A stretch of DNA of 64,000 nucleotides, from NCBI GenBank assembly GCA_965225085.1, contig CBDDBE010000001.1:65641-129640 (forward strand), in the 5' to 3' direction. Below the pieces are notes generated by a model that was not told the DNA's origin, searched no databases, and was given only the letters and a program-made list of their open reading frames with translations. Shown here in pieces: positions 1,776 through 59,674 of this stretch. The stretch is from an uncultured Candidatus Saccharibacteria bacterium (GTDB lineage: Bacteria > Patescibacteriota > Saccharimonadia > Saccharimonadales > EFPC-124). The translations under genes were made by a program, and so were the position numbers. Position 1 is the first letter of the stretch; each line of letters opens with the position of its first letter.

Positions 1776-2993
1776 TTACCAGTTATGCGTCACCAACCAG
1801 TGATTGTACGCAGCTTGCCATGAACCATATCGACTGGCGGCGTAACTGCTACACCATTTGAGCTGAGTAATGGGGTTATACTGCCAATCAGCACCAGCGG
1901 AAGCCATCTTGCTGCCAGGTGTTGACTGACAAAGACCATAGCCGAGGCCAGCCGGGATGCTGCTAGGTACAGCACTGGGGCACGCACCCCAATGACCCTG
2001 GAGCTTAGTAGCGCACCACCCGCTTTCGTGCGACACAATGTAGTCAACGTATGCGTAATCGCTCTGGGCGATGCCCGCCGCAGCCATGACGTCGGATTTG
2101 TCACCGGTCAGCGTTACCGGAGGCTTCGCACCCACCACCTCGACCTGCTCTTTTGGCTCCTGTGTGGTCACGCTTTGGATTTCTTTGCGTGAGACTTCGG
2201 CGCCATTCTTCAGCTCTATCTGGTAGGTCACGATCTTCTTACCCTTCGCGCCTGGCGTCTGGACGTTCTTGTAGCCCAACGGCTGGTCGGCGTCCTGGAT
2301 TTGCTTGGTGGTAAAGGCAATATCCTGTTCGACGCTTACTGTCTGCTCGCCATTACGGTAGACATCCACTGTCATGTTTGCGGCGACTACGGTGTTTGCG
2401 GCAGGCGAAACCCCGTCCTGGGCAGCCATGGTAATACCCTTTGCGGTCAGGAGTTCACCGATAGTCTTGGCCTGGGTGCGGATATCGACCGCTTTGCCAT
2501 ACAGAACCATATGAACAGGCACACTCCGAGTGATAGTCAGCATCAGGCCTGCGCCGCCCTGACTCACAAAATCGTCGATGCGGCTGATTGTAAGTGTATC
2601 CTCGGGGTACACTTCCAGCCCAGCCGCATTGGCAATTTCCTTGGCGCTTTGGTACGGGCTCATAATCCGGTAGCGTTTGTCGCCGTCCACCACCGTCACC
2701 GGCCGCGCGCGGTAGACGTTGATGTCGTAGCTTTGGGCGATGAGTTTGGTGTCTTTGGCGGGTTCTACGGCGTCATTTGATTCCAGCTTTACTCCAGCTC
2801 GGTCGAGTGCTTCGCCAACGGTTGCGGCATCGGTCGCCACTACCTGCTGTTGGCCATCATGATAAATCGTCACAATCCGACTGTTCTCGGCATGAGCTCG
2901 GGCGTGCGGTAATGGCGATACAAAATACAAGGCCACGAGTGCGGCCGCCATCCCAACCCCTGTTAATACGTTACGCAAAAGTCGATTTTTCAT
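1776..2993 (-). CDS. Secreted DUF348(x3)-G5 peptidoglycan hydrolase (RpfB/YabE-like architecture)
   Basis: I moved the start to ATG 2993 (MKNRLLRNVLTGVGMAAALVALY, a signal or anchor). There are three DUF348-like units and a G5 domain (KNVQTPGAKGKKIVTYQ). The C-terminal domain has VSHESGW...GLCQSTPGSKMASAG...W, resembling a transglycosylase or Apf-like domain. Confidence 0.75.
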   Translation of the reverse strand: MKNRLLRNVLTGVGMAAALVALYFVSPLPHARAHAENSRIVTIYHDGQQQVVATDAATVGEALDRAGVKLESNDAVEPAKDTKLIAQSYDINVYRARPVTVVDGDKRYRIMSPYQSAKEIANAAGLEVYPEDTLTISRIDDFVSQGGAGLMLTITRSVPVHMVLYGKAVDIRTQAKTIGELLTAKGITMAAQDGVSPAANTVVAANMTVDVYRNGEQTVSVEQDIAFTTKQIQDADQPLGYKNVQTPGAKGKKIVTYQIELKNGAEVSRKEIQSVTTQEPKEQVEVVGAKPPVTLTGDKSDVMAAAGIAQSDYAYVDYIVSHESGWCATKLQGHWGACPSAVPSSIPAGLGYGLCQSTPGSKMASAGADWQYNPITQLKWCSSYAASRYGSWQAAYNHWLVTHNW

Positions 2994-3051
2994 GTATGTG
3001 TAAACGGGCAACAAAGCTAGTATAGCAAAAGCTGGCTCGGCACGATAGCTG

Positions 3052-3525
3052 CTACTTTCGATCCAAATGCAGCACGAGCGCACTATCTACCGTCGAGCTA
3101 CGCTGCGACGGCAACGATTCCAGTGCGAACCAGGCTGCGTCCAGTATCTCCAGGCGGTGACGGGCTGCAATACGAACGGGCTGATTCGTAGTGACGGCCA
3201 CCTGGCATACGACCGTAAAAGGTGCGCTGGAGTCGCCATTCTCGAATTCGCCAAGCGGTTGACAGGAGCGCGCGTCGATAACAACCCCCGACTCCTCGTA
3301 TGTCTCTCGAACTGCTGCTGCAGCTATGTCCTCACCTGGCCGAATGCCCCCTCCTGGCAGGCTCCACCGCTGGCGACCAAACCAGCTACGGACCAGCAGG
3401 ATCTCCTGACGGTCGTTGAGCACCAATAGGCGAGATCGTCGACGCCCCTTCATCACGACTCTTAATAGCGGAGTTGCGGCTGCATGGCCAACCCTCCCGA
3501 CCCAGGCATATGTACGTTTCAGCAT
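3052..3525 (-). CDS. NUDIX hydrolase
   Basis: The Nudix box GGGIRPGEDIAAAAVRETYEESGV is present. The start could alternatively be the internal MKGRRRS. Confidence 0.8.
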   Translation of the reverse strand: MLKRTYAWVGRVGHAAATPLLRVVMKGRRRSRLLVLNDRQEILLVRSWFGRQRWSLPGGGIRPGEDIAAAAVRETYEESGVVIDARSCQPLGEFENGDSSAPFTVVCQVAVTTNQPVRIAARHRLEILDAAWFALESLPSQRSSTVDSALVLHLDRK

Positions 3526-3674: not shown

Positions 3675-4403
3675 TTACTTGTCATCCGTGCTGCTAAGGA
3701 AGCAGGACGTGATGAGGCCGGTGCCGTCGTCGTGCTTGCCATCCGGCAAGAGCGCAGCGTCGCCGTGCCCTACATCCTGCCAGGTCTCCATCGACTTGTG
3801 GCGCACGTAGCCATCGATGGGCACCCACGCGGCGATCAGCTGCTGCCAGCTGTAGTCGCCTGTCGTGCAGGTGGTACGACGCTTGCTGCTCTGGTCGTAG
3901 CGTTCGTCAACTGCCACGATCTTGCCCGTGCCCAGCGCCAGGATCAGGTCCGGCTTGACGGCGTCCGAGGGACGCTCGACCGGGACTTGGCCCTGAACCG
4001 AGAGCACCACGTAGACGTTGTTCGACTTCGTCTTCAGGTGGAAGGTGTCGGTAGCGCCGGCTCCGAAGAGAACCGGTGACACCTTGTAGCCGTCCGCCTT
4101 CATCTGGTCGCTTCCAGCCACCTTGGACTGACCGGTAGACGGCCAGACTTCGTTGGTGGCTGCGATGATGGCGTCCTGCGAGAGCGTCTTCGGCACCTCG
4201 ACCTGAGGCGTCGTGGGCGCGGTGTCCCGCCGAACCTTGTCCGTAATGGACGACGGCGGGCGCATCACCCCAAGAAGGTTCGGCCCCACAAAGTGGAGCA
4301 CGGCACCAAAGGCCGCGCCCACCATGATCAGCAAAACCGACAAATGCACGGCTCGCTTCCAACCCTTGAGCTTCGGCTTAGCGGCCTTAGCCATGTGCTT
4401 CAC
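3675..4403 (-). CDS. Hypothetical N-terminally membrane-anchored protein in a G+C-rich patch
   Basis: 242 aa with one N-terminal TM segment (AVHLSVLLIMVGAAFGAVLHFV). I recognise no motif. The region shows stacked ORFs in other frames, which is a symptom of high GC. Confidence 0.5.
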   Translation of the reverse strand: MKHMAKAAKPKLKGWKRAVHLSVLLIMVGAAFGAVLHFVGPNLLGVMRPPSSITDKVRRDTAPTTPQVEVPKTLSQDAIIAATNEVWPSTGQSKVAGSDQMKADGYKVSPVLFGAGATDTFHLKTKSNNVYVVLSVQGQVPVERPSDAVKPDLILALGTGKIVAVDERYDQSSKRRTTCTTGDYSWQQLIAAWVPIDGYVRHKSMETWQDVGHGDAALLPDGKHDDGTGLITSCFLSSTDDK

Positions 4404-23781: not shown

Positions 23782-23808
23782 GACCGCTCGGCAATCTAGG
23801 ACCGTCAA

Positions 23809-23915
23809 GGTATAATGCCGGCACCCACCGGCTGCCCTCCCTCCAAAGGATGGGCAGTCGGTGGGCAAACCACCCAAGCGCTTGATACATTCGAGCTTTT
23901 AGGTGGTTATTTTTA
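23809..23915 (+). repeat. Two-hairpin element, copy A (candidate sRNA or terminator module)
   Basis: GGTATAAT comes first. Hairpin 1 is CCCACCGGCTGCCC/GGGCAGTCGGTGGG and hairpin 2 is ACCACCCAAGCGCTTGA/TCGAGCTTTTAGGTGGT. A T-run (TATTTTT) follows. Confidence 0.55.
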
Positions 23916-24077
23916 CTACTGATACGCCCGATAATCGGCGCCGTCGCGCTAATTGACAAAGCTGACCGAAAAACAGTTCCAGAGAATCATGCTCCAGGGC
24001 ACGTCATGAAAGACTACCGACAAACACGATCATACTTCGTGAAGCTCAACCACCTGAACAATCGTAGGTATTAATGC

Positions 24078-25688: not shown

Positions 25689-25898
25689 GTGCCCAAGAAG
25701 CCGAAGCCCAAGATCTTCAAGGGATCGGGGCCTGTTCTCAAAACGGTGCAGGACGCCGTAACTGCGGAGTCTGAGACCTGGATGCGTAGTAGGGAGGGCC
25801 AGCGTGTCGGTGAATGGTCACGCACCCAAGCTATTGACTATTCCGAGAAGACGGGCCTCTACACGTTCACCGTGACCATCAGCTACGTCTACAAGTAG
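25689..25898 (+). CDS. Small hypothetical protein (lysine/proline-rich N-terminus)
   Basis: GTG start preceded by a strong ribosome-binding site (GAGGGGG). The product is MPKKPKPKIFKGSGPV... The competing antisense ORF 25505-25825 has no such signal. Confidence 0.35.
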   Translation: MPKKPKPKIFKGSGPVLKTVQDAVTAESETWMRSREGQRVGEWSRTQAIDYSEKTGLYTFTVTISYVYK

Positions 25899-25941
25899 CC
25901 TTCGCGCTCTTCATCGACAGGCTTAGATCCGTGGCTGCCAC

Positions 25942-26047
25942 GGTATGACCACACCCCACCGACAACTCTCCACAAGGACGGGCTGTCGGTGGGGAGCACC
26001 ACCTAAGTGCTTGACTTACTATCCGAGCTTTTAGGTGGTGTTTATTA
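25942..26047 (+). repeat. Two-hairpin element, copy B
   Basis: GGTATGAC comes first. Hairpin 1 is CCCCACCGACA/TGTCGGTGGGG and hairpin 2 is ACCACCTAAGTGCTTGA/CCGAGCTTTTAGGTGGT, followed by GTTTATT. It is collinear with copy A, and the stem changes are compensatory. Confidence 0.55.
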
Positions 26048-26247
26048 AGAGAGGTTTTAGTTGTCTGGTACTGAGAGATTCGAGCCCTAATTTACAGAGA
26101 TTAAGATCAAAAGAAAAGTTCGACAATACAAATCGTCGAACTTTTCTGGTCTGAATAATCTTATGGTGACCCCGCGGGGACCTTCGGCGAAACATCTTTG
26201 GGATATGGAATGGAGCGATTAGATGATCGGCTCAAAGAATTGGGTCT

Positions 26248-26865: not shown

Positions 26866-27239
26866 ACCTTCTCTGCGATCATACTTATTTCGATACTCGC
26901 ACCCAAAGGCAAAGCTTTTACGCATACTGCTTCACGCACCGGATATGGCTCTTTAAAGTAAGTCGGGTAAACTTTGTTGAGATCGGGCATTACGGCCATA
27001 TCGGTCACGTAGATAACAACCTTAACAATGTCATCCAGTGTCGCATCGGCCGCTTTCAGAATAGCGGCGATATTTTGCATGATCTGTGCAACTTTTTTCT
27101 CGGTTGTGTCGCCCACTAGTGTATTGTCCGGTAGTGCATGGATTTGACCGGCCACAAAGATAAAACCATTGCTTGCGAGTGCTTGCGACAGAAAGGCTGG
27201 TGCCCCTGGTGCTTCGTTAGTGGAGAATGCTTGTTTCAT
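26862..27239 (-). CDS. ridA: RidA/YjgF-family reactive intermediate deaminase
   Basis: 125 aa with FIFVAGQI...VKVVIYVTDM...PVREAVCVKALPLGASIEI, typical of YjgF/RidA. Confidence 0.85.
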   Translation of the reverse strand: MKQAFSTNEAPGAPAFLSQALASNGFIFVAGQIHALPDNTLVGDTTEKKVAQIMQNIAAILKAADATLDDIVKVVIYVTDMAVMPDLNKVYPTYFKEPYPVREAVCVKALPLGASIEISMIAEKV

Positions 27240-27315
27240 GCTCTAATAATACCCCGTTAGGTTCAAACAGCCTACGGTGAATCGGACCACTCAACAGGGG
27301 CAGCGCCCCAAACAA

Positions 27316-27349
27316 ATGTCCCCACAAGCTTTCGCCTGCGGGGACATTG
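27316..27349 (-). terminator. Hairpin plus T-tract downstream of tRNA-Glu
   Basis: On the minus strand it reads ATGTCCCC-N16-GGGGACAT followed by TTGTTTGG. Confidence 0.45.
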
Positions 27350-27387
27350 TGTCTGTAAGGTGTTTCGAGAACGCTTATTTTCCAAAA

Positions 27388-27462
27388 TGGTGACCCCGCG
27401 GAGAGTCGAACTCCGGTTGCCGGGATGAAAACCCGGTGTCTTGACCGCTGGACGACGGGGCC
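27388..27462 (-). tRNA. tRNA-Glu (anticodon UUC), CCA encoded
   Basis: The reverse complement is GGCCCCGTCGTCCAGCGGTCAAGACACCGGGTTTTCATCCCGGCAACCGGAGTTCGACTCTCCGCGGGGTCACCA. It has a 7-bp acceptor stem, the anticodon stem-loop CCGGG-TTTTCAT-CCCGG, and the T-arm GGAGTTCGACTCTCC. Confidence 0.9.
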
Positions 27463-27595
27463 AAAGTGGAGGGCATTGAATTTTATGCTGGCATAAAATT
27501 CAATGATCCGAACATTTGGGTCAATTTACGAAGTAAATTGGGGTCACGCTCATGCATGTTCATCAATTTGCACAATCGTAACAGATCAGATTTTA

Positions 27596-29947: not shown

Positions 29948-30361
29948 TTACTTCCTCACCTGATGAACGACGAACGTTACGACACCCCACAGCATCGCAT
30001 CCGTCGCCTCGTGCAGCGCAATTGGCGGATAGCCAGGGTGTTCGGCAACCAGCCATGCTTCCGCACCCTGTTTCTTCAGGCGCTTCAGCGTAAAGTCGCC
30101 ATCGACCGCGGCCACCACAATATCGCCCGAACGCGCCTCAAGTGACTTATCGACCACCACCAGATCGCCAGAGGTAATGCCAGCGCCGGTCATCGAGTCA
30201 CCCTCGACTCGCAAATAGTAGGTACTGACGGGTCGCTTTACCAGATATTCATTGAGGTCAAGCGCAAACCCGCCCGCTTCTTCGGCGGGGTTGGGAAAGC
30301 CAGCGCGGACGGGGCTGATCATCAGGTGTGGGAGGTGTTTTTGAGCCATTTCGTCATCCAT
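29948..30361 (-). CDS. umuD: S24 peptidase, UmuD-like (LexA-type autoprotease)
   Basis: An RAGFPNPA cleavage-type region, EGDSMTGAGI (Ser) and FTLKRL (Lys) are present. Starts at ATG 30361 (or 30349). Confidence 0.8.
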   Translation of the reverse strand: MDDEMAQKHLPHLMISPVRAGFPNPAEEAGGFALDLNEYLVKRPVSTYYLRVEGDSMTGAGITSGDLVVVDKSLEARSGDIVVAAVDGDFTLKRLKKQGAEAWLVAEHPGYPPIALHEATDAMLWGVVTFVVHQVRK

Positions 30362-30383
30362 TATAAAACTTCTTGCACCTCTA

Positions 30384-30435
30384 TAACATATGTAATAAAC
30401 ATAAGGATAATATTGCTTTTTACGCACATATGTGT
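30384..30435. promoter_or_regulatory. Two ACATATGT-core palindromes (Cheo/SOS-box-like) in the umuD upstream region
   Basis: TAACATATGTAA (30384-30395) and GCACATATGTGT (30424-30435) can be compared with the Gram-positive LexA box GAAC-N4-GTTC, for example CGAACATATGTTCG. Confidence 0.3.
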
Positions 30436-30471
30436 TAATGTATATACCGATCTACCTGTGAGGAGGATTTT

Positions 30472-46244: not shown

Positions 46245-46276
46245 AAACCACCTCTGAATATTCAGGGGTGGTTTTG
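46245..46276 (+). terminator. Rho-independent terminator
   Basis: CCACCTCTGAA-TA-TTCAGGGGTGG is followed by TTTTG. Confidence 0.75.
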
Positions 46277-55848: not shown

Positions 55849-58188
55849 ATGAACATCGATACGCAGGCTTTCGAAAAATACCATCGTGCCGCCAATTATC
55901 TGACGGCAGCACAAATATTTCTGGGCGATAACTTTTTGATGGAACGCGACCTGACGTTCGACGATATCAAATCGCGCCTGCTCGGCCATTGGGGGTCTGG
56001 GCCGGGAGTAAACTTTGTCTACCCGCACCTAAGCTATCTGGCAAAGCAACACAGCCAAGACATGCTGTTCGTACTGGGACCTGGGCACGCCTTCCCGGCA
56101 CTGCAGGCCAACCTATTCCTAGAGGGAACGCTCAGCAAATACTACCCCACCGTCCCGCAAAACCTCGATGGTATTGCCGAAATGTGCCGTCAATTTAGCT
56201 GGCCATACGGCTTCCCCAGCCACAGCAACCCCGGCACGCCTGGCGTCATTCTGGAAGGCGGCGAGTTGGGCTATAGCCTGGCCACCAGTTACGGCGCGGC
56301 ACTGGACAACCCCAATCTTATCGTTTCGTGCCTGATTGGCGACGGCGAAGCCGAAACCGGCCCGACGGCCGGCGCTTGGCACCTAAACAAGCTGCTCAAT
56401 CCACGCAGCAACGGCGTTGTATTGCCTATACTGCACCTCAATGGCTACAAGATTTCCGCCCCGACTATCTACGGCCGCATGAGCGACTACGAACTCATGA
56501 CGCTATTTAGCGGCTACGGCTATCACCCGCGCATTGTGGACGTGACCGAAAGCGACGACCCGCACCGCGACATGGCCGAGGCGATGGAATGGGCCTGGCA
56601 ACTTATCCACCAGGTCAAGATGAGCAAGGACCTCACGGCGCGGCATCTGCCCATGCTGATCTTGCGCAGCCTAAAGGGCTGGACCGGGGTGAAAGAGCTT
56701 GATGGCCAAAAAATCGAGGGCAACGCGCTCAGCCACCAAGTGGTACTAACCGAGGCCAAAACCAACGCTGAACAGCTCGCACTACTAAACGATTGGCTGC
56801 GCAGCTACAACTTTGGCGAACTATTCGACCGCGAAAAGGGGTTCGGTGATTTCCTCCAGACCATCCTGCCGCCACCCGATAAGCTCATCGGCGACAGTCC
56901 ACATGCCCGGGGCGGCGACGGTGTGTACCAACCGCTGAAACTCCCACCCGCCGACCAATTTGCCGAAGATGCCGAGGTGCCAGGTACTATTGGTAGCAGT
57001 AGCATGCGCCGCGCCGGCCTGTACCTGCAGGAAGTTTTCAAGCTCAACAAAGATACCGCCAACTTTCGCTTCATGTCGCCAGATGAGACCTACAGCAACA
57101 AGCTCGATGCTATCTTCAACGAAACGTCACGTGCCTGGATGTGGCCTATTCAGCCCTGGGACAAGGACCTGGCGCAGGATGGCCGCGTGATGGAAATGCT
57201 CAGCGAGCACAACCTGCAAGGCCTGACGCAAGGCTATGTGCTGACCGGTCGGCACGCCATGTTTGCCAGCTACGAAGCGTTCGTGCAGATCGTCTCCAGC
57301 ATGATGGACCAATACGCCAAATTCCTGAACGTAGCCCGCGACGTCGAGTGGCGCGGCGATTTCCCGTCGCTCAACTACATCCTGACCAGCTCGGGGTGGC
57401 GACAGGACCACAACGGCTTTAGCCACCAGAATCCAGGCTTTATCGACGACGCGCTTCGCCGCCAGGGTGACTTTGTGGATGTGTACTTCCCGCCCGATGG
57501 CAACAGCACGCTTGCTGTCATGGAACACGTGCTAGGCACAACCAAGCAGATCAACATCGTCGTCGCCGGCAAGACCCTCGAGCCACGCTGGCTCACGCCC
57601 GAGCTTGCCCAGAAGCAGATGGTCAGCGGCGTCATGACCTGGGACTTTGCCAGCGACCCTGACCCAGATATCGTGATGCTCGGCATCGGTGACTACCCAA
57701 CCAAGGAGATCCTGGCCGCTGTCGACATCGCCAAACAAGAGCTCCCGGAATTGCGCCTTCGTGTCGTGAACGTCATGAGCCTGACCAGCTGCGGACTTGG
57801 CCAGGGCGGTACGTGTGTATCGCAAGCCGAATTCGAACGCCAATTCACCACCGACAAGCCCGTCATCTGCAATTTCCACGGCTACCCCGAGACTATCAAA
57901 TCGATCCTGTTCGACTACGTCGACGACCCCAAACGCTTCACCGTGCGTGGATACATCGAAAGTGGCAGTACCACCACGCCATTTGACATGCACATCCGCA
58001 ACCGCACCAGCCGCTACCATTTGGCTATGGAAGTATTCGAACGAGCCGCCCAAACCGGCAGAATCCCAGCCGACGCCGCCAAAACCCTCACCGACAAATA
58101 CCAGGCCAAAATCGACGAGAACACCGCGTATATAAAAGTTCATGGCATCGACCTACCAGAGATTGACGCATGGGAGTGGAAACGATGA
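55849..58188 (+). CDS. xfp: Xylulose-5-phosphate/fructose-6-phosphate phosphoketolase
   Basis: 779 aa with LLGHWGSGPG and EGGELGYS phosphoketolase signatures and GDGEAETGP, which is TPP-binding. Confidence 0.92.
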   Translation: MNIDTQAFEKYHRAANYLTAAQIFLGDNFLMERDLTFDDIKSRLLGHWGSGPGVNFVYPHLSYLAKQHSQDMLFVLGPGHAFPALQANLFLEGTLSKYYPTVPQNLDGIAEMCRQFSWPYGFPSHSNPGTPGVILEGGELGYSLATSYGAALDNPNLIVSCLIGDGEAETGPTAGAWHLNKLLNPRSNGVVLPILHLNGYKISAPTIYGRMSDYELMTLFSGYGYHPRIVDVTESDDPHRDMAEAMEWAWQLIHQVKMSKDLTARHLPMLILRSLKGWTGVKELDGQKIEGNALSHQVVLTEAKTNAEQLALLNDWLRSYNFGELFDREKGFGDFLQTILPPPDKLIGDSPHARGGDGVYQPLKLPPADQFAEDAEVPGTIGSSSMRRAGLYLQEVFKLNKDTANFRFMSPDETYSNKLDAIFNETSRAWMWPIQPWDKDLAQDGRVMEMLSEHNLQGLTQGYVLTGRHAMFASYEAFVQIVSSMMDQYAKFLNVARDVEWRGDFPSLNYILTSSGWRQDHNGFSHQNPGFIDDALRRQGDFVDVYFPPDGNSTLAVMEHVLGTTKQINIVVAGKTLEPRWLTPELAQKQMVSGVMTWDFASDPDPDIVMLGIGDYPTKEILAAVDIAKQELPELRLRVVNVMSLTSCGLGQGGTCVSQAEFERQFTTDKPVICNFHGYPETIKSILFDYVDDPKRFTVRGYIESGSTTTPFDMHIRNRTSRYHLAMEVFERAAQTGRIPADAAKTLTDKYQAKIDENTAYIKVHGIDLPEIDAWEWKR

Positions 58189-58241
58189 CCCGACCCGAGA
58201 CGCGTATCGACGCACTTTTGAATCCAGGCACATGCGGGTCA

Positions 58242-58445
58242 CAAAATGTGTTTGGAATAACACATTTTGAGCTTCCGAGCTGCCGGGATTCCAAAAGTAC
58301 GTCGCTCACTGAGACACTACTGAAAAACGTACCAAGTATCTCAGCCGGCAGGGTATTCTTGAAATTACAGCACCTCGGAAGCACGATTTGTGGTAGCCCA
58401 ACCACAAATCGTGACCCGTACGTGCTGAAATTCAAGAATACCCTG
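58242..58445 (+). repeat. Nested long inverted repeats in the xfp-ackA spacer
   Basis: Hairpin 1 (58242-58269) is CAAAATGTGTT-TGGAAT-AACACATTTTG. The composite hairpin (58349-58445) has outer arms CAGGGTATTCTTGAAATT / GAAATTCAAGAATACCCTG. It encloses CAGCAC..GTGCTG and a perfect 12-bp stem CACGATTTGTGG-TAGCCCAA-CCACAAATCGTG. Confidence 0.6.
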
Positions 58446-58489
58446 ATCGGCGATACGGGCACATTGCATAGCGCCCCTCTGGGAGCGGC

Positions 58490-59674
58490 ATGATGCTAAC
58501 CCTCATCGCCAACCCAGGCAGCGCCAGCCGCAAATACGCACTGTACCGGGACGACCAACAGCTTGCCAGCCTCCACTTTGAATACCACGAAGGGCGCATC
58601 GTGTGTCATGGCTCATTCGGCGACCAACACGAGCCAGTCCCCATCGATCTGCACGATCTTGGCGACGTAGCCGGCCAAATCATACCCATCTTGCGCAGCC
58701 ACAGCCTCATGAGCGACGATGAAACCATCGAGCGCATCGGACTACGAATCGTTGCGCCCAGCAGCTATTTCCTAGAGGACCGCGCGCTGGACGACGAGAC
58801 TATCGGACATCTTCGCCAGCTCGAGCCCAAAGCGCCACTGCACATCACCGCGACTCTGCGCGAATACGAAACACTCCACGCTAGCTTCCCCGCTGCGCTG
58901 CTTGTCGGCGTGAGCGACAGCGCCTTTCATGCCACCAAGCCCGACTACGCCTGGAACTACGGTGTACGGCTGCAAGACGCTGATCGATTCGAAATCAAGC
59001 GCTTTGGCTACCACGGGATATCCGTGGCATCGATCGTCCGAATACTCCGCGAAGCCGACAAACTGCCACCGCGCGTCGTTGTGGCGCACTTGGGTAGCGG
59101 GGCTAGCATCACCGCTGTGCATGGCGGCAAAAGTCACGACACAACCATGGGCTACTCACCGCTCGAAGGGCTCATCATGGCCACCCGCGTCGGCTCTATC
59201 GATCCGACCGCAACCAATATGTTGCAAACTCAGCTCCGACTAAATGACGAACAAATGGAGGATTACCTCAACAACCACAGCGGGCTTCTGGGCCTCAGCG
59301 AGATTTCCTCGGCCATCGACGAGCTGCTTACGCACGAACAAAACGGCCATCATAATGCCAGTCTTGCGCTGAGTACCTACACATTTACCGTCCAAAAGGC
59401 TATCGGCGCCATGGCTGCCGGCATGGCTGGCGCAGATATGCTGGTCTTTACCGGAACCGTCGGCGAGCGTTCGTTCGAGATGCGGCGACGGATTGTCGAC
59501 CGGCTGCATTTCCTGGATTTCATCCTGGATGACGAGACTAACAATGCCTGCGCCAACCCCGATACTCTATCACTGATCAGCAAACTCACGACGTCCAAAC
59601 CAATCTACGTCTTGCCCACAGATGAAGCGGGTGAAATATTGCGACGCGTACAGACATTTGGCGATAAAAATTAA
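58490..59674 (+). CDS. ackA: Acetate kinase
   Basis: ANPGSASRKY, HLGSGASITA and GYSPLEGLIMATRVGSIDP are present. 394 aa, immediately downstream of xfp. Confidence 0.9.
   Translation: MMLTLIANPGSASRKYALYRDDQQLASLHFEYHEGRIVCHGSFGDQHEPVPIDLHDLGDVAGQIIPILRSHSLMSDDETIERIGLRIVAPSSYFLEDRALDDETIGHLRQLEPKAPLHITATLREYETLHASFPAALLVGVSDSAFHATKPDYAWNYGVRLQDADRFEIKRFGYHGISVASIVRILREADKLPPRVVVAHLGSGASITAVHGGKSHDTTMGYSPLEGLIMATRVGSIDPTATNMLQTQLRLNDEQMEDYLNNHSGLLGLSEISSAIDELLTHEQNGHHNASLALSTYTFTVQKAIGAMAAGMAGADMLVFTGTVGERSFEMRRRIVDRLHFLDFILDDETNNACANPDTLSLISKLTTSKPIYVLPTDEAGEILRRVQTFGDKN

Follow-up and report, generated by a model that had tools for sequence, protein, structure and literature searches.

The genes for phosphoketolase (xfp) and acetate kinase (ackA) lie side by side on the + strand of the Candidatus Saccharibacteria DNA analysed here (contig CBDDBE010000001.1; the whole stretch, 64 kb long, is referred to as the window), and they are separated by a spacer of 301 nt (58189-58489). 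The Pfam matches of Xfp have E-values of 1e-58 to 1e-128 and the protein is 82-87% identical to those of relatives; AckA matches Acetate_kinase with E = 7.7e-75 and is 48-77% identical to its counterparts in Saccharibacteria relatives, the NCBI copy beginning at the second ATG and thus having 393 aa. We consider it reasonably probable that the spacer reflects a lineage-specific insertion and consists of two non-coding modules in inverted arrangement, members of a sparse, interspersed family of palindromic DNA elements in Saccharimonadales (Saccharibacteria/TM7). The module family is absent from Rfam and from the literature that we searched, and on balance the spacer does not look like a regulator that evolved for xfp and ackA.

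An earlier note on this DNA described the spacer as almost entirely nested inverted repeats, and this description is borne out, each of the features that it named being found. Folded as RNA, the + strand of the spacer reaches -137.6 kcal/mol as against -83.5 ± 5.4 kcal/mol for dinucleotide shuffles (z = -10.1), the - strand reaches -156.4 kcal/mol (z = -11.2), and none of 100 shuffles matched the native folding energy of either strand. The three top-ranking inverted repeats of the entire window all fall within this spacer. A perfect 11-bp hairpin that the note had placed here is confirmed (58242-58252 / 58259-58269, with a 6-nt loop), and is merely the tip of a second 97-nt composite hairpin, at 58208-58304, which the note had missed. 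The composite hairpin that it did describe, at 58349-58445, is present with outer arms of 18 nt that are 94% complementary, but its inner helix, given as 12 bp, is a perfect helix of 13 bp (58382-58394 / 58401-58413). The proposed pair CTGCCGG (58280-58286) and CCGGCAG (58345-58351) likewise exists in the sequence, but it is unused in the minimum-free-energy fold.

We find that the two composite hairpins are homologous and inverted relative to one another. Hairpin 58208-58304 aligns with the reverse complement of 58349-58445 with a score of 96, compared with 27 ± 7 (maximum 48) for shuffled controls and 59 for the same-strand comparison. Taken with their short flanks, the hairpins define module A, with its sense strand on +, and module B, with its sense strand on -, which lie 28 nt apart (Table 1) and align without gaps over 113 columns, 74 of them identical (65%). 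The modules have 36 base pairs in common, 11 of which carry compensatory changes on both sides and none of which is broken, so that the stems differ in compensated fashion while the internal loops CGGGTCAC and GCTTCCGAG are conserved. A covariance model built from modules A and B (R1) scores A over its full length at 131 bits and B, on the - strand, at 130.9 bits; the model of the whole family (R2) gives 81.6 and 84.6 bits, respectively. Module A has a head, ACGCGTATCG, and a tail, GCTCACTGA, and the facing tails of A and B make a small central hairpin. The modules on a metagenome contig, L077 (L numbers denote individual loci or contigs), have GCTGGCTGAG tails, to which the tails CTCACTGAGA and CCGGCTGAGA can be aligned. 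The ends of the insert are weakly similar, reading CGTATCG and CGATACG (inverted repeat I12).

Table 1. Features of the xfp-ackA region, in window coordinates.
Feature	Position	Strand	Remarks
xfp (phosphoketolase, 779 aa)	55849-58188	+	upstream gene of the split pair; Pfam XFP_N, XFP, XFP_C
107-aa open reading frame	58170-58493	+	by-product of the palindromic insert; spans the spacer; no Pfam family
Upstream junction copy (TGGGAGTGGAAACGATGACCC)	58171-58191	+	direct repeat D6; retains xfp C-terminus and stop codon
Hairpin module A	58200-58312	sense on +	hairpin 58208-58304; asymmetric core 58227-58284; inverted repeats I1, I5
Small central hairpin (CTGAGACAC...GTATCTCAG)	58309-58344	.	in minimum-free-energy folds
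Hairpin module B	58341-58453	sense on -	hairpin 58349-58445; core about 58369-58426; inverted repeats I2, I3
Downstream junction copy (TGGGAGCGGCATGATGCTAACCC)	58480-58502	+	direct repeat D6; GGGAG Shine-Dalgarno-like motif and new ackA start
ackA (acetate kinase, 394 aa)	58490-59674	+	393 aa from the ATG at 58493; Pfam

Evidence that these modules were inserted comes from relatives, which were selected by their AckA, one genome per species, and all of which are metagenome-assembled genomes (MAGs) of Saccharibacteria (Saccharimonadales), the closest being 73-75% identical. At the 28 loci in which xfp lies upstream, the two genes overlap by 13-19 nt in 22 and are 1-17 nt apart in 6; L032, a 77%-identical relative, has an xfp-ackA spacer of 31 nt, and the insert is missing from 28 of 31 related xfp-ackA loci. 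An example of the ancestral junction is TGGGAGTGGAGACGCTAACCC, in which the xfp stop sits inside ackA codons 4-5, and in L012 the overlapped junction reads GCATGGGAGTGGAGACGCTAACCC. We note that in L002-L031 (at about position 3986-4010 of each) the xfp stop falls within the first ackA codons in an out-of-frame overlap of 13-19 nt, and that an overlap retained by 22 of 28 Saccharibacteria species representatives is an unusually conserved junction for this gene pair. In the window, the doublet is flanked by a direct, imperfect duplication of the junction, 9-21 nt long; xfp therefore kept its stop codon. Homologous inserts occur at the same place in two metagenome contigs, L077 (340 nt) and L058 (280 nt). 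All three filled sites carry ATGCTAACCCTCATCGCC, two codons shorter than the ancestral ATGGAAACGCTAAC, and have the derived ackA start ATGCTAACCC in common, and the window and L058 share the derived xfp end GGAAATGATGACC. Xfp is 85-88% identical among insert carriers and 88% identical between L058 and the insert-free L032. Because these identities put L032 among the carriers, the presence of the insert is patchy, whether through loss or through repeated gain.

These comparative data largely refute the proposal, made in the earlier note, that the spacer is a structured leader or attenuator for ackA. A dedicated cis-regulatory leader (an attenuator, a riboswitch-like element or a processing site) that sets the expression of ackA relative to that of xfp would fit the position of the spacer within an operon whose two flanking genes encode enzymes of the same pathway, as well as its high stability as RNA and the ribosome-binding motif that ackA has downstream of it. 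Such an element, however, is missing from most related loci, where the genes overlap or nearly abut; in L077 the same pair of modules is found a second time, between ackA and a peptidase gene; and elsewhere single modules stand beside unrelated housekeeping genes, in either orientation, and also between divergent genes. Furthermore, we detected no sigma-70-like promoter and no intrinsic terminator on either strand of 57900-58700, the hairpins being followed by no U-tract, and Rfam returned no family for the spacer (searched alone and within the whole window), a consensus-like single module or the second type of insert described below. The best Rfam matches were to generic long hairpins (miRNA precursors) and lay below threshold, at no more than 37 bits against gathering scores of 51-140. 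We therefore give the leader very little chance of being correct.

The modules are not confined to xfp-ackA loci. The earlier note had suggested looking for dispersed copies as a check on a mobile origin, and this search drew a blank on the 64-kb window: blastn with the spacer found no further copy there, nor did R1 in the window and the loci of 30 relatives. When metagenome contigs were scanned for the pattern CGGGTCAC-N28-GCTTCCGAG, at least 120 stretches were recovered, and R1 accepts 32 of the pattern matches listed as full-length modules, with E-values of 1e-27 to 1e-9. The family so defined comprises at least 32 distinct modules over 32 metagenome contigs and the window, at no fewer than about 25 sites. 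Among the matches listed, the contigs of accepted modules have 45-58% GC and Saccharibacteria-like genes, whereas the matches that the model rejected lie mostly on contigs of higher GC (46-76%); two neighbours of modules are annotated in a Candidatus Saccharimonadales MAG. On L077 there are four modules, arranged as pairs at two places, between xfp and ackA and between ackA and a gene for a D-Ala-D-Ala carboxypeptidase; sites beyond the window and L077 hold single modules only, again among the matches listed. A search of 564 kb with R2, 33 unselected Saccharibacteria loci (about 300 kb) among them, yielded no additional copy, and the element is therefore sparse; the 64-kb window has a single site, and MAG GCA_035649555.1 has two or more. 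IMG/VR viral contigs gave 0 matches to the core pattern or to two arm sequences, searched as a test of a phage- or spacer-like origin of the arms. The literature that we searched on Saccharibacteria and Patescibacteria contains no description of palindromic, hairpin or miniature inverted-repeat transposable element (MITE)-like elements of this kind and, to our knowledge, interspersed repeats in Saccharibacteria are undescribed. We also note that one Logan contig begins inside a module (L163:1-83, where the match to the model is truncated at its 5' end), which suggests that short-read assemblies break at these palindromes.

Alignment of the 32 distinct modules with MAFFT reveals a conserved asymmetric core of ~58 nt, in short form GGCAC..CGGGTCAC..stem-loop..GCGCTTCCGAGGTGCC. 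The 5' half of the core consists of GGCAC, three nucleotides (NTR), CGGG, TCA, an 11-bp stem and a 6-nt loop ending in T; the 3' half consists of the partner strand of the stem, GCGC-T, TCCG, AG and GTGCC (downstream of the loop, GCGCTTCCGAG-GTGCC), and CGGG pairs with TCCG. On this structure, 80.5% of paired cells in the alignment can pair, compared with 67.4% in shuffles, and the covariation score is 0.366, compared with 0.137 in shuffled alignments (0 of 500 reached the observed value) and no more than 0.234 when partners were slid. Pairing reaches 95.7% in the inner helix, 6 of whose 11 pairs show changes on both sides, and some copies have broken inner pairs. The arms outside the core are 17-35 bp long, nearly all Watson-Crick with few G-U pairs, and distinct at each site; those of L086, for example, are perfect over 34 bp, and those of L034 extend over 32 bp. 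Sense and antisense RNAs of the modules fold with equal stability and neither strand is enriched in G-U pairs. Degradation of the arms, tested against degradation of the cores as a sign of decaying selfish copies, gave no significant correlation on a crude measure (rho = -0.09). We rejected three further ideas about the core. From the head and tail motifs it is evident that inversion involves the module as a whole, rather than cores flipping within fixed arms, and the difference between the window and L077 is better explained by modules that alternate in orientation and differ in number. A CRP-like dimer operator (AAATGTG-N10-CACATTT) was set aside since the inner stem covaries differently in the four copies on one contig, and a promoter in the loop was set aside since the conserved TA, as read from the alignment, has no following -10-like T.

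It is conceivable, though in our view distinctly unlikely, that the ~58-nt core is the true mobile or propagating unit and that each copy gains perfectly complementary arms of 17-35 bp from local sequence. Two observations underlie the idea. MAG GCA_035649555.1 holds both L034/L162 and L086/L159, whose cores are almost identical and whose arms (32 bp and 34 bp) are unrelated, and L092 and L122 have a rare variant of the inner stem in common and different arms. New arms might arise when the flank is copied in inverted form, by fold-back priming or template switching, or might be the work of some hairpin-specific enzyme. If so, the core would spread with an inverted rather than a direct target duplication, which is undescribed for bacterial elements and would so far be limited to Saccharibacteria. 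Adjoining the module at L116:8920-9019 is an insert, L116:9036-9146, with perfect inverted arms of 25 bp around an unrelated 61-nt core that forms two small hairpins. Neither of the covariance models recognises this insert, nor does Rfam, and it suggests that a layout of perfect arms plus structured core is not restricted to one type of core. At L079:10091-10224, 5 kb from a family module on the same 100-kb Saccharibacteria-like contig, 28-nt arms that are 93% complementary enclose a structured core of 78 nt (-100 kcal/mol over 134 nt), with nothing similar in any fetched locus. Together these two inserts, with long arms and other cores, hint that the architecture is more general.

We note that modules occupy short intergenic gaps, in many cases directly next to a stop codon (L086, L048, L122 and L149). 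They lie between convergent, tandem and divergent gene pairs, with about half of them in sense and half in antisense to neighbouring transcription, and the 148 open reading frames (ORFs) near modules are housekeeping genes (NUDIX, SMC/ABC ATPases, FKBP, tRNA synthetases). For example, module L034:3452-3559 (the same as L160/L162:2838-2937, from MAG GCA_035649555.1) occupies the divergent promoter region that separates a Ku-LigD operon for non-homologous end joining, on the - strand, from a gene on the + strand for a 634-aa protein with no Pfam family. Elsewhere, module L067:3825-3990 and a 1.6-kb segment, L154:297-2000, which carries a gene for a 455-aa protein of no known family, occupy the same intergenic spot, between a mannose-6-phosphate-isomerase-like gene and an OmpR-type regulator; the flanking genes are 80-84% identical, and the spot appears to be a replacement hot spot. 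The site in the window orthologous to the module site L149:1-240 is empty, with a 58-nt spacer (2993-3052) in which a conserved TTGC...TGCTATACT motif, resembling a promoter, precedes the ATG of the next gene; in L149 the module is placed between the stop codon and this motif.

How far the family resembles a MITE, as the earlier note had supposed, depends on which of its features are considered. The insertion is indeed absent from 28 relatives, and the family is non-coding and dispersed over at least about 25 intergenic sites; at xfp-ackA, moreover, a direct junction duplication bounds the whole insert and its two ends are weakly similar. A classical MITE, that is a deletion derivative of a DDE-type insertion sequence (IS) mobilised by the transposase of that IS, would nevertheless be expected to have conserved terminal inverted repeats (TIRs) and a target-site duplication of fixed length. 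What is conserved in this family is the centre rather than the termini, which vary, and the arms of copies within one MAG are wholly different. Singlets also carry no flanking direct repeats of 4 nt or more, in the about six cases with reliably defined ends, and no transposase is found nearby among the 25 most frequent neighbouring Pfam families. Lacking shared TIRs and a clear target-site duplication at singlets, the family is not a classical MITE, and we think such an origin highly unlikely.

The family would instead seem to behave as an entity at the level of DNA, selfish or generated by recombination, because the modules are independent of orientation, have arms of Watson-Crick pairs only, are patchily present and have unrelated neighbours. 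Several observations weigh against a mobile DNA element, however. Transposase or recombinase genes are absent from the 25 most frequent of the 156 Pfam families encoded by the 148 neighbouring ORFs; among close relatives of singlet loci we found no clean pair of filled and empty sites at high nucleotide identity; and a second copy was not seen in the 64-kb window. In L158/L159 and in L160-L164, which are the same strains, the element is present throughout, and L154-L157 have a 1.6-kb replacement at the spot of the module and hence offer no clean empty site. The conservation of CGGGTCAC and GCTTCCGAG is inflated, as the scan demanded both in one copy per locus; GGCAC/GTGCC, the T of the loop and the TGTG/CACA stem are conserved yet were not imposed by the search pattern. 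The near-identical cores in one MAG could result from gene conversion instead of recent mobility, and a MAG can be a mixed bin. Finally, the core is strongly conserved even between genomes with proteins that share just 50-75% identity, and this might as well reflect a function for the host.

It is possible, then, that the modules are a structured motif with a host function, such as a small RNA gene or a protein-binding hairpin of RNA or single-stranded DNA that serves as a site of processing, stability, replication or recombination. On this view a conserved host factor would recognise the loops of the core, the long stem would matter solely for its helical form, and the xfp-ackA copy would be just one functional instance. 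Invariant unpaired nucleotides conserved over deeply diverged genomes, significant covariation in the stem, the sparseness of an element that is not highly repeated and the maintenance of asymmetry despite palindromic surroundings would all be accounted for in this way. We nonetheless regard a host function as unlikely, in that orientation relative to neighbouring transcription is roughly half and half, neither strand has an excess of G-U pairs, the hairpin has no conserved promoter or terminator outside it, neighbouring genes are unrelated, presence varies among close relatives at one locus and inner pairs are broken in some copies.

We favour DNA elements, and the persistence of asymmetric loops despite the palindromic context suggests that the folded strand is read by something. 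We speculate that the conserved asymmetric loops are most simply viewed as the surface by which a trans-acting enzyme acting on folded single strands recognises the element. Fold-back or template-switch copying probably maintains or generates the perfect arms; the core may propagate by itself, its arms being copied from local sequence or corrected against it. At xfp-ackA, the insert split the ancestral overlap of 13-19 nt, and ackA acquired a new ATG, two codons short of the ancestral start, along with a GGGAG ribosome-binding motif of its own; translational coupling between the two genes must presumably have been lost. The stretch from the last module to the start codon contains no promoter, and ackA is therefore presumably still transcribed together with xfp, through two hairpins of ~97 nt without a U-tract. 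REP and Correia elements have established roles as sites of RNase cleavage or in stabilising upstream mRNA, and by analogy the hairpins of the spacer may be targets of a double-strand-specific RNase or may help to stabilise the mRNA upstream. The locus thus offers to physiology a natural split of a strongly conserved overlapping gene pair, repaired by junction duplication and a new start codon. More generally, in the small, tightly packed genomes of Saccharibacteria, a hairpin family provides a new handle on DNA rearrangement in an episymbiotic lineage. Because a covariance model exists, a comparative-genomics search for the protein to which the asymmetric loops point, one that reads folded strands, is tractable.

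Several known systems invite comparison. Like repetitive extragenic palindromic (REP) doublets (REPINs) and bacterial interspersed mosaic elements (BIMEs), the family is non-coding, extragenic and palindromic, has no gene of its own and occurs both inside operons and between genes. A REPIN is a pair of REPs set in inverted orientation around a spacer (PMC3337134); the window likewise has two inverted units with a short spacer that are able to form a larger hairpin, the L077 pairs are arranged in the same way, and the alternating orientation and remnants of the L077 arrays recall BIMEs. The module unit, however, at about 100 nt (97-113 nt or longer), is three to five times longer than a REP (20-40 nt), and it has no conserved 5' GTAG-type tetranucleotide and no conserved columns outside the central core. 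REPs within a genome share their whole sequence, whereas modules share only their centre. Most family members, unlike REPINs, are singlets, each a complete hairpin alone, and their copy number is apparently low rather than in the tens to hundreds. REPIN systems are mobilised by REP-associated tyrosine transposases (RAYTs), and we saw no RAYT among the 25 most frequent Pfam families of the neighbouring ORFs. Enterobacterial repetitive intergenic consensus (ERIC) elements, also called intergenic repeat units (IRUs; 127 bp), Correia elements of Neisseria and foldback MITEs resemble the modules in being imperfect palindromes of 100-150 nt that lie in transcribed intergenic regions in either orientation. 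Like the modules, they are also conserved in sequence across species at differing locations, and they can be placed between co-transcribed genes, where they may affect mRNA processing. Their conservation nevertheless includes the termini, and Correia elements have 26-bp TIRs and a TA duplication, while the termini of the modules are unique to each site and perfectly complementary, and the asymmetric core alone is conserved. Compensated structure combined with conserved unpaired or asymmetric bases, as would be expected of a strand that a protein recognises in its folded form, is shared with integron attC sites, the subterminal hairpins of IS200/IS605 and the origins of HUH Rep proteins. In attC, however, the base of the stem is conserved (R boxes, RYYYAAC...GTTRRRY) and the tip is variable, the opposite of what we find in the modules; the hairpins of IS200/IS605 are short and flank tnpA/tnpB; and no integrase, transposase or Rep gene is linked to the modules among the 25 most frequent neighbouring Pfam families.

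Lastly, the 107-aa ORF that spans the spacer was judged in the earlier note to be a by-product, and our results agree. It is open over the entire spacer, its start overlaps the end of xfp and its stop overlaps the ackA start (ATGA), it has been called by gene callers in Logan and NCBI, and ORFs also span the spacers of L077 and L058, all of which might be expected of a genuine small gene with translational coupling to its neighbours xfp and ackA. We find that idea barely credible. The ORF has no Pfam family and, among 5.8 billion proteins, matched only itself; it resembles the L077 spacer ORFs solely at modules whose orientation and reading frame agree; the opposite strand is open too (124 aa), as is expected of a palindrome; and the variation is explained by compensatory base-pair changes and not by codon conservation. 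Annotations of the ORF in Logan and NCBI assemblies are therefore spurious, and assemblies may break at the module palindromes.

Other non-coding parts of the window also stand out. The genome is densely packed, yet long intergenic gaps of 296-540 nt occur at 23782-24077, 25826-26247, 26926-27465 and 30057-30471, of which just one contains an Rfam match, to a tRNA at 27391-27462. Two intergenic palindromes with tiny loops, a perfect one at 46245-46274 (arms of roughly 12 bp) and another at 26112-26147 (arms of ~16 bp, 94%), bear no relation to the module family and resemble ordinary bidirectional terminator hairpins.

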